In this document: piece after piece, positions 9,669 to 12,656 of the stretch
How the letters are laid out: every line of letters begins with the position of its first letter
Position numbering within the stretch: the stretch's first letter is position 1
Source of the DNA: Bacteroidales bacterium
GTDB taxonomy: Bacteria; Bacteroidota; Bacteroidia; Bacteroidales; VadinHA17
Direction: 5' to 3'
NCBI GenBank assembly: GCA_049975425.1
Contig: JBNGDI010000017.1
Location: 4,757-68,756 of the forward strand
Length of the DNA: 64,000 nucleotides
The notes under the pieces: model-generated
The model's database searches: none
What the model saw: the letters and a program-made list of their open reading frames with translations, nothing else
Told to the model about the DNA's origin: nothing
Translations under genes and position numbers: made by a program

Positions 9669-10388
9669 TCAGGCGGAATCTTCTTCCGGCTGTTTGTCGA
9701 GGATCAGTTTGTAGCCTTTTCCGTGTATATTCAGGATTTCGATGGACGGATCTTCGCGGAGGTATTTCCTCAGTTTGGTGATATATACATCCATACTCCT
9801 GGCGTTGAAGTAGTTATCGTCTTCCCAGATGGTACGCAGGGCAAAATTTCGTTCCAGGATCTGGTTCTGGTTATTGCACAGGAGCTTCAGCAGTTCCGAT
9901 TCCTTGGTAGTGAGTTTCCTAACCTGGTCTCCGTGCTGAAGGGTTTGTTTGTTGGCGTCGAAAGTGAACCGGCCGAGCCGGAAGATGTTTTTACCACCGG
10001 CAGCCTGCCCCCCCCGGGTTCTTCTGAGTACGGCTTCTATGCGGTACAGTAATTCTTCCATGCTGAACGGCTTGGTGATGTAATCGTCACCGCCGATGGA
10101 GAAACCTTCGATCACATCTTCTTTCAGTGATTTGGCCGTAAGGAAGATAATGGGGATATTGCTGTTAATCCGGCGGATTTCGCGGGCCAGTTCGAAACCG
10201 TCTTTTACCGGCATCATCACATCGAGGATGCAGATATCGAAGTGTTCCCTGACAAAACCCCTGAAGGCTTTTTCTCCGTCAGGGTAAAGAACCGTATCAT
10301 ATCCTTTGGCCATGAGGTAATCCCTGAGAAGGGTGCCCAGGTTCATATCGTCTTCGGCCAGCAGGAGCCTGGTAGGTTCATCAGGCAT
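9669..10388 (-). CDS. rprY: OmpR-family response regulator (RprY-like)
   Basis: LLAEDD...LDVMMP receiver, winged-helix with NYFNARSMDVYITKLRK typical of Bacteroidota RprY. Confidence 0.85.
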   Translation of the reverse strand: MPDEPTRLLLAEDDMNLGTLLRDYLMAKGYDTVLYPDGEKAFRGFVREHFDICILDVMMPVKDGFELAREIRRINSNIPIIFLTAKSLKEDVIEGFSIGGDDYITKPFSMEELLYRIEAVLRRTRGGQAAGGKNIFRLGRFTFDANKQTLQHGDQVRKLTTKESELLKLLCNNQNQILERNFALRTIWEDDNYFNARSMDVYITKLRKYLREDPSIEILNIHGKGYKLILDKQPEEDSA

Positions 10389-11934
10389 GGCGTTGGTTTG
10401 ATTCAGGGATAAAGATAATAAATTTTGAACCTTTTCCCTGTTGACTTTCCACCCTTATGGACGCTCCGTGTTCTTCCACAATCTTCTTCACGTAACTCAG
10501 TCCCAGGCCAAATCCTTTCACGTTATGGATATTTCCCGTTGGGACCCGGTAGAATTTATCGAAGATCTTGCGTTGATGTTCACGGGTCATGCCTATTCCG
10601 TTATCTTCTACCGAAATTTCAAGACCCTTTCCCCGGTTCCGGGTGCGGATGGTGATAACCGGCCGGTCTTTGGAATATTTCAGGGCATTGTCCACCAGAT
10701 TGGAAAGCACGTTGATGGTATGCACCTCGTCAAGGTGAGCCTCGGGGTATTGGGCTTCATCTTTCAGAATGATATCTCCCTGCCTGTTTCTAATCTGGAG
10801 CTCGAAATTCTTGATGACCGTTTCAATGAGACGATGTACATCCACCTTTTTCTTTTTCAGTTTTACACGTCCCCTGTCAAAAATGGCTGTTTGAAGCACT
10901 TTTTCCACCTGAAGTCCGAGGCGTCGTGTTTCTTCGTGGATGATGCCCGATATCTGGCCGATGTTTTTCCCGGGGCCCTGAAATCCGGGGTCGGACAGCA
11001 TCTGGGCAGCCAGTGAGATGGTAGAAATGGGGGTTTTCAGCTCATGGGTCATATTGTTTACAAAATCGTTCCGTATTTCAGACAGTTTTTTCTGCCTGAA
11101 AATAACCAGCAGGGTAATGGCAAACAGCAGAACGGTAGTGAGTATGAGTATAATACTGGTAATGCGCATAAAACCGAGAGAGCGATAAATGAACCCTTTT
11201 TCACCCGGGAAATACAGGCTGACGAATGCCGGAATGCTCGGGATATCGTTGGGGAAAAGGGCCTGCTGGAACACCCCCGAGCGGGTTTCCTCGCTGTATG
11301 CAGGTGTATGGTACAGTACCCTGTTATCGGGTTTTTTTACGGCCATTTCGTATTCCAGGTCGATGCCTCTATCCTGCAGGCGCGAGGCAATCATCCGGTT
11401 AAGAACATCCAGGTTAATTCTTTTTTCCACGGGAGGCAGCTCACGTGTCATTCTGTCCATGATATTTCGCAGAAAGACTGACTTCCGGGTAATGCGGCTT
11501 GAGACCATTGTTTTGATTTCCCCTTCTTGCATAACAGAGCTTGTCCCGCTTTCCATATAGCTTTCCCCCACAATTACCTCCCATGAAAAGGAATCACGAA
11601 TTTCTAGTGGCGGGGATCTGAAACCCCTGTTCTGTGAGGAATAGGGGGCAGGCTGTCTTCGGGGGGGGGCAGATTGTTTTTCATACTGGAGGGCATCGAA
11701 ATGCCAGGGAACGGTATCGCTTTCCATAGGCATGGCTTCATCCATAATATGATATACGGCTTCCTGCCTTTCCACCTCCCTGGCCACTTCATTCAGGGTA
11801 TGGTATACTATCTGCCGGAACTGTTGTTCCTTTACCTGCATGGCGTTGTTGATCCAGTAAGCCTGCACCAGGATAAGTCCGGTCATTACCAGGGCCATGA
11901 CCCCGGCCAGAAACCATATCCATTGTCTTTTCAT
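10381..11934 (-). CDS. rprX: Sensor histidine kinase (RprX-like)
   Basis: Two TM segments, NNMTHELKTP H-box, N/G boxes, HNVKGFGLGL. ATG at 11934. Confidence 0.85.
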   Translation of the reverse strand: MKRQWIWFLAGVMALVMTGLILVQAYWINNAMQVKEQQFRQIVYHTLNEVAREVERQEAVYHIMDEAMPMESDTVPWHFDALQYEKQSAPPRRQPAPYSSQNRGFRSPPLEIRDSFSWEVIVGESYMESGTSSVMQEGEIKTMVSSRITRKSVFLRNIMDRMTRELPPVEKRINLDVLNRMIASRLQDRGIDLEYEMAVKKPDNRVLYHTPAYSEETRSGVFQQALFPNDIPSIPAFVSLYFPGEKGFIYRSLGFMRITSIILILTTVLLFAITLLVIFRQKKLSEIRNDFVNNMTHELKTPISTISLAAQMLSDPGFQGPGKNIGQISGIIHEETRRLGLQVEKVLQTAIFDRGRVKLKKKKVDVHRLIETVIKNFELQIRNRQGDIILKDEAQYPEAHLDEVHTINVLSNLVDNALKYSKDRPVITIRTRNRGKGLEISVEDNGIGMTREHQRKIFDKFYRVPTGNIHNVKGFGLGLSYVKKIVEEHGASIRVESQQGKGSKFIIFIPESNQRHA

Positions 11935-11941
11935 ACCTGAA

Positions 11942-11949
11942 CAAAGATA
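11942..11949 (-). promoter_or_regulatory. Bacteroidota -7 promoter element for rprXY
   Basis: TATCTTTG on the minus strand, 7 nt before the ATG. Confidence 0.7.
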
Positions 11950-11975: not shown

Positions 11976-12015
11976 CTTTAACAATCTTTAACAAACCTTA
12001 TCAAAACTTAACCAA
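11976..12015. promoter_or_regulatory. Four 10-bp-phased direct repeats (TTAAC-type boxes), putative response-regulator binding site
   Basis: ctttaacaat/ctttaacaaa/ccttatcaaa/acttaaccaa, lying between two divergent -7 elements. Confidence 0.65.
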
Positions 12016-12024
12016 AGGTTGATA

Positions 12025-12032
12025 TACATTTG
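12025..12032 (+). promoter_or_regulatory. Bacteroidota -7 promoter element for the candidate sRNA
   Basis: TACATTTG matches TAnnTTTG. No + strand CDS follows. Confidence 0.65.
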
Positions 12033-12038
12033 TGGTGC

Positions 12039-12162
12039 AGAAGGAAAGCATTCTTTTTTTTCTGAACAGGAAGAGAAAGAATGCCATCCGAATTTCGGAG
12101 TTTAGGTTAGAGTTAGGTTAGGGAAAAAGAGGCCGTGACCGCCCGGTTACGGCCTCTTTTTT
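12039..12162 (+). ncRNA. Candidate small regulatory RNA (~125 nt)
   Basis: -7 box, 16-bp hairpin (12048-12084), short hairpin (12087-12099), UUAG repeats (12102-12123) and terminator with U6 tail. The G-U pairs work on the + strand only. Confidence 0.65.
12124..12162. terminator. Bidirectional intrinsic terminator
   Basis: AAAAAGAGGCCGTGACC-GCCC-GGTTACGGCCTCTTTTTT. Confidence 0.85.
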
Positions 12163-12586
12163 AGAACAGCAACTTGTTTTTTGATCTGAGGCTGCCCGGA
12201 TTTACGGGGATAAAAGCCCTGACGGCCGGCATGGATTTTATGGCGGAAATGAGGCCGGCAGATGGCGTGTTTTTATCGTCGGAATGAATGCTCAGAAAGA
12301 AATCAACGTTTTTCAGTTCCTCCAGAAGGTATCCGTTTTCCCCACGATTCCCTATCAGGCGATAGGTAATATGGGTTTTTTCATCGACAAAGGTGTAATG
12401 GGCAAATTCCTGAGTAAGCGATTCTCCGGGGTGTTCAATTTTCAGGTTCTCCGTTCTTTTCAGGTCCCATTCCATAGTCCGGTTGATCAGCCATGCCAGC
12501 CGGTAGTCGCGTTCATCGCTTACCAGCCCGAAAAGGAGAAAATCGTACTCGGGTTTGAAATCAAGTTTATGGGTTCGTTTTTTCAC
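12161..12586 (-). CDS. IPExxxVDY-family protein
   Basis: DYRLAWLIN and YLLEELKNVDF motifs, SLRSKNKLLF end. Probable GTG start at 12586, -7 box TATCTTTG at 12607-12614. Confidence 0.7.
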   Translation of the reverse strand: MKKRTHKLDFKPEYDFLLFGLVSDERDYRLAWLINRTMEWDLKRTENLKIEHPGESLTQEFAHYTFVDEKTHITYRLIGNRGENGYLLEELKNVDFFLSIHSDDKNTPSAGLISAIKSMPAVRAFIPVNPGSLRSKNKLLF

Positions 12587-12656
12587 GATGGGTTTACCGT
12601 TTTCCCAAAGATACAAAGGACCGGAGAAAGTAAAAACAGGTCGTCACACTGGTTTT

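Follow-up and report, generated by a model that had tools for sequence, protein, structure and literature searches.

A predicted small RNA divergent from rprXY in a Bacteroidales genome, a likely distant relative of the Bacteroides FopS RNAs

Genes and sequence elements of the locus

The window, that is, the whole stretch of 64,000 nt analysed here, belongs to the genome of a Bacteroidales bacterium (G000), for which a sister genome (G001) and a third genome of the genus (G002) were available. The gap of interest is flanked by two minus-strand genes, as an earlier note on this DNA had reported: the histidine kinase gene ahead of rprY on one side and an IPExxxVDY-family gene on the other, the right-hand neighbours being this gene and rnc (Table 1). 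An rprX orthologue was matched in 118 of 121 genomes of the family. We take BT_2166 to be rprX. This kinase is listed with a 5' UTR of less than 10 nt in the part of PMC7366714 used here.

The earlier note had described the gap as holding a complete plus-strand transcription unit, and its elements were found again: a -7 box TACATTTG at 12025-12032, a 16-bp hairpin with three G-U pairs (12048-12084), a 5-bp hairpin (12087-12099) and a 12-bp terminator stem (12129-12156, one G-U pair) followed by T6 at 12157-12162. The tract at 12100-12123, described as unpaired, is nearly open but not strictly so, since a marginal helix of -0.8 kcal/mol is predicted. All four wobble pairs are G-U on the plus strand as claimed, which is weak evidence taken alone. 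The motif TAnnTTTG occurs 1538 times in the genome, so the box gains meaning solely through its conservation. Over 12030-12170 the predicted folding energy is -56 kcal/mol (z -6.9) for the plus strand, and the minus strand likewise has a stable fold (-40.8 kcal/mol, z -5.3). The 5-bp hairpin needs G12097, which is A in G001 and in all four sequencing runs of related strains. The terminator is preceded by A5, which would supply a minus-strand transcript with a U5 tail, and it touches the stop codon of the IPExxxVDY gene; a small RNA is thus unnecessary to explain its presence. As to coding capacity, where the earlier note had seen no credible ORF, the stretch is overlapped by four ORFs, 23-29 aa in length; the minus-strand ORFs opposite the seed are unconserved. 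A 28-aa minus-strand ORF is the only one on either strand that starts inside the unit. The 5' end of the predicted RNA was placed as in FopS of Bacteroides, where the FopS-10 primers and the FopS loci put 4 nt between the box and the first nucleotide of the RNA.

Table 1. Features of the rprX-IPExxxVDY region and the leader ORF matched by the seed tract (positions in the window unless a contig is named; a dot marks no assigned strand)
Feature	Position	Strand	Basis
rprY, OmpR-family response regulator	9669..10388	-	NCBIfam NF051850, 379.8 bits (cut-off 370)
rprX, sensor histidine kinase	10381..11934	-	Pfam HisKA, HATPase_c; named by position ahead of rprY
rprX -7 box TATCTTTG, nearly leaderless message	11942..11949	-	sequence; 25-28 nt from repeat in 65/67 loci
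Direct repeat TGTTAAA-N3-TGTTAAA, likely RprY site	11977..11993	-	at most 2 mismatches in 67/70 loci
Third and fourth degenerate half-sites, same 10-bp register	11997..12013	.	sequence; by eye in related loci
Putative sRNA promoter, -7 box	12025..12032	+	31 nt after repeat
Predicted sRNA, ~126 nt	12037..12162	+	start from 4-nt box-to-5'-end gap in FopS
16-bp 5' hairpin	12048..12084	+	seen in this genus only
5-bp hairpin overlapping degenerate anti-start-codon segment	12087..12100	+	alignment
U/G-rich seed tract with complementarity to the translation-initiation regions of susC-type genes	12100..12123	+	
Bidirectional intrinsic terminator, common to rnc-IPExxxVDY transcript	12124..12162	.	
IPExxxVDY-family gene, convergent neighbour	12161..12616	-	NF033205, 96.5 bits (cut-off 40)
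23-codon leader ORF	G000:C18:53635-53706; L230:1173-1244; L229:298-369	- (C18)	

Conservation of the unit upstream of rprX

Seventy rprX upstream regions of the same family were compared, of which 30 came directly from the orthologue search and 40 were picked from the ranked 118 matching genomes; the set includes G000 and G001, and its members are kin rather than independent. A seed-type tract on the strand divergent from rprX was present in 66 of the 70 loci, and the four loci lacking it were all cut by contig or locus ends. The tract tracks rprX and not the downstream gene across loci with differing right-hand neighbours. Three layouts were found. In 19 loci a promoter is followed by a gene for a secreted K/E/V/I-rich protein, and the seed and terminator lie in the 3' UTR of this gene in all 16 of these loci that extend far enough; in some of the 16 a second promoter motif lies inside the coding part. 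In the second layout (41 loci) both an ORF and a -7 box at the usual distance are missing; 37 of these loci have a sigma-54-type motif 33-36 nt ahead of the seed. The third (nine loci, including the window) has the -7 box at the usual distance and no ORF. Twenty-nine loci have a box 25-45 nt beyond the repeat, and in 28 of them the two are 31-32 nt apart; this shared spacing makes the window promoter the counterpart of the one that drives a coding gene elsewhere.

Promoter, repeat and seed tract are thus conserved at the locus, but the 5' hairpins are poorly kept. The weight that the earlier note gave to these two hairpins is not supported, since they occur in this genus alone and are partly disrupted in its close relatives. 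A plus-strand sRNA gene linked to rprXY, as the note had proposed, is supported by the box-repeat spacing kept in relatives; transcription of the RNA and its control by RprY are inferences. In a direct DNA search of 40 relatives, the RNA part was found in G001 only and the promoter alone in three more genomes. None of the sequencing runs listed as containing the stretch was an RNA run. Four contig sets from sequencing runs of related strains were also inspected and, at a depth below 5, carry modest weight. No substitution was listed at 12100-12123 in any of the four, although two of them are fairly diverged (21 of 166 and 22 of 226 letters differ). The -7 box was altered at its two free positions only (run X9), and the changes in the terminator stem keep plus-strand pairing, in one case by changes on both sides; for the 5' hairpins, pair-keeping and pair-breaking changes were mixed in the related contigs and G001. 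RNAalifold gave no consensus structure for the family units, because their terminator sequences differ. The anti-AUG segment is degenerate in the window copy, where UUUCGGAG replaces UUUCAUAG at 12093-12100 in the alignment with relatives and FopS, and some other genera also lack it and keep the seed.

The secreted K/E/V/I/H-rich proteins divergent from rprXY are about 175-340 aa long (24 loci); they had no Pfam family and no Atlas match of at least 0.9, and the Atlas clusters were hypothetical. To see whether the 16-bp hairpin could be a remnant of signal-peptide codons, it was aligned with these genes; scores were low, and for 6 of the 24 the best alignment lay at that junction. A tandem pair of seed-terminator units adjoins rprX in 13 loci. 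In 13 Muribaculaceae-type rprX upstream regions, two TTAACA words about 20 nt apart are followed by a TGTGAA word, a block that the 10-bp matrix does not score.

The 10-bp repeats at rprX and at FopS promoters

Four half-sites with a 10-bp period start at 11977, 11987, 11997 and 12007. The first pair, read on the rprX strand, holds its distance to the rprX -7 box across the family (Table 1), and the last two overlap the expected -33 region of the putative sRNA promoter. The repeat at 11977..11993 had the top genome-wide matrix score in G000; when the sRNA-sense strand was scanned, the window gave no good site. RprY of P. gingivalis binds its own promoter and may repress it, and its targets, in the parts of PMC3646045 and PMC5706477 drawn on here, are stress and sodium genes and not susC. 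The simplest reading of the repeat would be a self-regulating site of an OmpR-family regulator, and it could belong to another regulator of that family. The five top sites of G000 precede rprX, truA and genes for an HlyD-type adaptor and a DegP-type protease, together with a gene that, from its sequence, we presume to be uvrA. Because the best sites also precede the protease and efflux-adaptor genes, this set hints at a role in envelope stress. In a wider set, the repeat fits only 26 of 73 rprX promoters, and most gut lineages score low.

FopS RNAs are paralogous Bacteroides sRNAs of 65-70 nt that consist of an open seed and a terminator and block susC translation; according to the sections of PMC11697453 used, they bind RbpB, are bile-induced by a transcriptional regulator left unnamed there, and are confined to Bacteroidaceae. 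We applied the repeat matrix to 11 FopS promoters, obtained from 13 loci tried in two genomes only. In 10 of the 11 the best site lies 54-56 nt ahead of the -7 box, with mostly modest scores, that is, two helical turns further from the box than at rprX. This was above 106 AT-matched promoters (p 7e-8), and none of 300 shuffles reached it. In B. thetaiotaomicron the element at this distance from a fopS -7 box reads TTAA-N-TGTTA. Within one genome of Bacteroides, 14 of 17 letters are identical between the rprX site and a FopS site.

Complementarity to susC translation starts

The susC set comprised the 12 genes of G000 recognised by TIGR04056, with gene starts called by our own script. These calls recovered the A-rich signal at -11 to -15 that is described as an initiation signal in the part of PMC7366714 at hand. 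The seed tract is complementary to susC start regions: a Watson-Crick score of at least 7.5 was reached by 7 of 12 susC starts vs 43 of 2239 other genes (Fisher p 1e-9), this cut being one of four reported, all in the same direction. With low-G matched controls the enrichment gave p 7e-4, and the observed susC mean was reached by none of 500 shuffled start regions and by 3 of 500 shuffled seeds. Coding-region controls showed no seed-matching effect under Watson-Crick scoring. By plain duplex energies the start regions were not enriched over coding or shuffled sequence, as expected for a tract rich in G and U. The Watson-Crick result recurred in six other genomes, with 88 susC starts in all (z 5.9-8.2). 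All five seeds tested matched the susC starts of all genomes about equally, which demonstrates a common susC leader motif and not co-evolution.

The best non-self match of the tract in the genome, at -25.3 kcal/mol, falls on the start of a leader ORF of 23 codons that lies some 200 nt upstream of a susC gene. The ORF has 23 codons in all three genomes of the genus, and the seed match is kept in G001 and eroded in G002. This ORF precedes a susC-susD-susC cluster and lies downstream of a hybrid two-component gene, which itself ends in a seed-terminator unit (C18:53972-54027).

Paralogous units, a decoy candidate and the RRM protein

At least five further seed-plus-terminator units were found in G000 by eye (C13, C18 twice, C19, C20 and C29), with weak scores under the family model described below. 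The paralogue at G000:C13:8418-8494 (-) keeps UUUCAUAG intact and converges on a gene for a sigma-54 activator. Upstream it has a repeat site, at about -55, and beyond that a sigma-54-type motif. Seed-like tracts with terminators at G000:C19:40840-40910, C20:14233-14305, C18:63598-63677 and C29:30850-30925 follow immediately on the stop codons of genes whose products are mostly exported, and are possible 3'-UTR-derived members of the family.

In the 3' UTR of a 147-aa gene, at G000:C12:44635-44705 (+), a mirror of the seed made of AACCU repeats lies right before the terminator. Its predicted pairing energy is -27.8 kcal/mol with the window tract and -41 kcal/mol with the C13 paralogue. The mirror is kept in all three genomes of the genus and is absent behind the orthologous gene in three other genera. 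The RNA from this 3' UTR is a candidate decoy. No decoy was seen in the lepA tail of G000. An RRM_1 (RbpB-type) gene was not found in G000, G001 or G002, which are 97, 98 and 80% complete, and was present in 15 of 16 other genomes of the family.

Comparison with FopS and other known RNAs

The FopS family is Rfam RF04319, which matched nine copies in two genomes at 70-81 bits. At its gathering threshold of 56 bits the window unit had no match and all ten rprX-linked loci tested fell below; the best score in G000 was 24.9 bits, for the C13 paralogue. The Rfam scan that the earlier note had called for returned no family for the unit, either at gathering thresholds or at E values up to 10, but its kind is not unknown: against the suggestion that it has no named relative, the seed, layout and targets resemble those of FopS and GibS, though below the Rfam cut-off.

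A model (R1) was built from 50 rprX-linked units, with the stem set by hand and with G000, G001 and FopS excluded. In the window it matched 12099-12163 at 20.2 bits (E 0.0055 for the window, 0.28 genome-wide), a weak match, yet in the expected place on the plus strand; a plain terminator scores above this copy within the window. The G001 copy scored 17.5 bits and held-out family units up to 70 bits. All nine Rfam-positive FopS copies were detected at 25-38 bits. Across the order, the model had matches in 35 of 100 genomes (one per family). Among the 19 best new loci, two adjoin rprX, two are antisense to the starts of long ORFs and 17 have no long antisense ORF; the model also scores antisense matches to target starts (G000:C35 and 2 of the 19 loci), so these counts overstate the number of sRNA genes.

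When the window seed was aligned with R1' of FopS, which starts with UUUUUCAU and ends with GGUUAA, the 3' part could be aligned and the 5' anti-AUG part was changed. The anti-AUG part is intact in most family orthologues. In relatives, this triplet and a U-run pair over the start codon, and both are missing from the window copy. The unit resembles FopS in its single-stranded seed directly before an intrinsic terminator, the TAnnTTTG promoter, the predicted complementarity of its tract to susC start regions, the occurrence of several copies in G000 and a similar upstream repeat motif. It differs in its predicted length of 126 nt, with 5' hairpins and about 55 nt before the seed, which processing might cut to about 70 nt, whereas FopS RNAs measure 65-70 nt and carry the seed at their 5' end, and in being tied to rprXY, located outside Bacteroidaceae, devoid of the anti-AUG and without an RRM partner found in the genus. 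Judged by these sequence features, the unit is a likely distant relative of the FopS RNAs and would work like them. It is not filed as a FopS member because of its Rfam scores, its length and the RRM partner; the RNA in the window is an atypical, weak member of the group.

GibS of B. thetaiotaomicron, as described in parts of PMC7366714 and PMC11697453, is likewise a longer RNA, has an R1-type seed in common with FopS and binds translation-initiation regions. In contrast to the unit it has a second seed and a PM2 promoter, a comparison made by description.

In well-known systems, OmrA and OmrB act on outer-membrane proteins, Rsm/Csr sponge RNAs carry repeated GGA words in hairpin loops, and CpxRA with cpxP and CpxQ, as well as MicL, serve here for comparison. 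The OmpR-OmrA/B analogy drawn in the earlier note, of a two-component system with a base-pairing sRNA and outer-membrane targets, agrees with the susC target test. The likeness to OmpR-OmrA/B and to the CiaR-csRNAs, both taken up in the discussion of PMC11697453, is that of an OmpR-family two-component system with paralogous base-pairing sRNAs; no Hfq exists in this phylum according to the part of PMC7366714 used. Sequence kinship with OmrA/B is not expected, and the target leader here is without a Shine-Dalgarno sequence. The 16 relatives with a coding gene resemble the CpxRA/cpxP/CpxQ and MicL systems by analogy only, having a two-component operon, a divergent secreted-protein gene and a seed in its 3' UTR; the secreted protein here has no Pfam family, and processing from the 3' UTR would be by analogy. 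Unlike the Rsm/Csr sponges, the unit has no GGA-in-loop layout and no Rfam match.

Proposed function and alternative explanations

The stretch is most likely an sRNA of about 126 nt, predicted at about 12037-12162 (+). Our preferred reading, to which we give somewhat better than even chances, is a trans-acting sRNA of the FopS/GibS seed type whose promoter is likely under the control of RprY and which would block susC-type translation upstream of start codons. RprY would bind the 10-bp repeats and could either activate or repress transcription, which would run from about 12037 to 12162 on the plus strand. The RNA would then pair just upstream of susC start codons, covering the A-rich signal at -11 to -15 and repressing translation, possibly as part of an envelope-stress response. 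The likely origin of the unit is a secreted-protein gene, divergent from rprXY, that held the seed in its 3' UTR and lost its coding part.

Alternatively, the unit could be a decaying relic. It would then consist of the promoter and 3' UTR left over from a gene that has disappeared, still transcribed or not, and its regulatory job would have passed to an intact paralogue elsewhere in the genome. The window copy has lost the anti-AUG and has the lowest model score, its 5' hairpins are poorly kept, the RRM protein was not found in the genus, and the C13 paralogue with its intact UUUCAUAG and its site at about -55 could have taken over. We nevertheless regard decay as unlikely, considering that 12100-12123 is free of listed substitutions in the four runs, that the -7 box is altered at free positions only, that the susC leader is matched at 19 of 20 positions and that other genera without the anti-AUG still keep the seed. 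The gap might also hold no functional RNA at all but the rprX promoter and the terminator of the rnc operon, with the remainder due to chance. A bidirectional terminator touching the IPExxxVDY stop codon, a common -7 motif and a minus strand that folds stably too would suit this account, which is nonetheless very improbable: the seed tracks rprX across loci with different right-hand neighbours, the plus-strand box at 31-32 nt drives a coding gene in 19 relatives, and the tract is complementary to susC starts.

The analogy with GacA-RsmY/Z in the earlier note would imply a protein sponge, in which UUAG/GGUUA words titrate some RNA-binding protein, for instance an RRM protein of the RbpB type. 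Such words are repeated in the tract, and FopS itself binds RbpB (PMC11697453, in the part used). The absence of a detected RRM_1 gene from all three genomes of the genus, against 15 of 16 other family genomes, speaks against the analogy; moreover, the seed of the family complements, in register, the start codon together with the region upstream, and the words do not stand in hairpin loops. We give titration a very small chance, though not quite as small as that of a tract conserved as the ribosome-loading site of a small minus-strand ORF, which is scarcely probable. There, a 28-aa ORF (12087-12001) does follow the tract in the window and G001, and the minus strand of relatives offers a good start context and then MKK; yet the ORF varies from 4 to 56 codons across 52 loci with no kept peptide, its start codon is altered in one related contig (X7), and the terminator would halt minus-strand transcription just before the tract. 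Both this ORF and the promoter-plus-terminator account fit the conservation poorly.

Beyond the preferred reading of an RprY-controlled, susC-directed sRNA, a broader picture can be drawn, which as a whole we hold to be doubtful. RprXY would be a Cpx-like envelope-stress system of Bacteroidales, and its RNA arm would be a superfamily of anti-start-codon sRNAs spanning the order, FopS among them; TGTTAAA would be the RprY site, and RprY would regulate the bile-induced FopS RNAs. The sRNA would have started out as the 3' UTR of the secreted-protein gene divergent from rprXY, becoming free-standing more than once, and the version in this genus, without the RRM protein, would have moved off the start codon and onto the susC leader ORF, buffered by a genus-specific decoy RNA.

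Significance

A literature search, in which subscription papers were mostly outside the scope, returned no paper joining FopS and RprY, no rprX-linked sRNA and no RprY consensus; the part of the SrcF preprint drawn on (bioRxiv 2024.04.05.588293) showed no link to the unit. The locus gives a concrete candidate regulator, RprY, for the bile-induced FopS RNAs, whose regulator is left unnamed in the part of PMC11697453 used. It also gives evidence that the seed type is spread across the order, beyond the limit of Bacteroidaceae set for FopS. The role suggested for RprXY would be to lower the synthesis of outer-membrane importers while acting on degP- and efflux-type genes. The main value of the finding is a testable link between RprY, a FopS-type RNA and susC.
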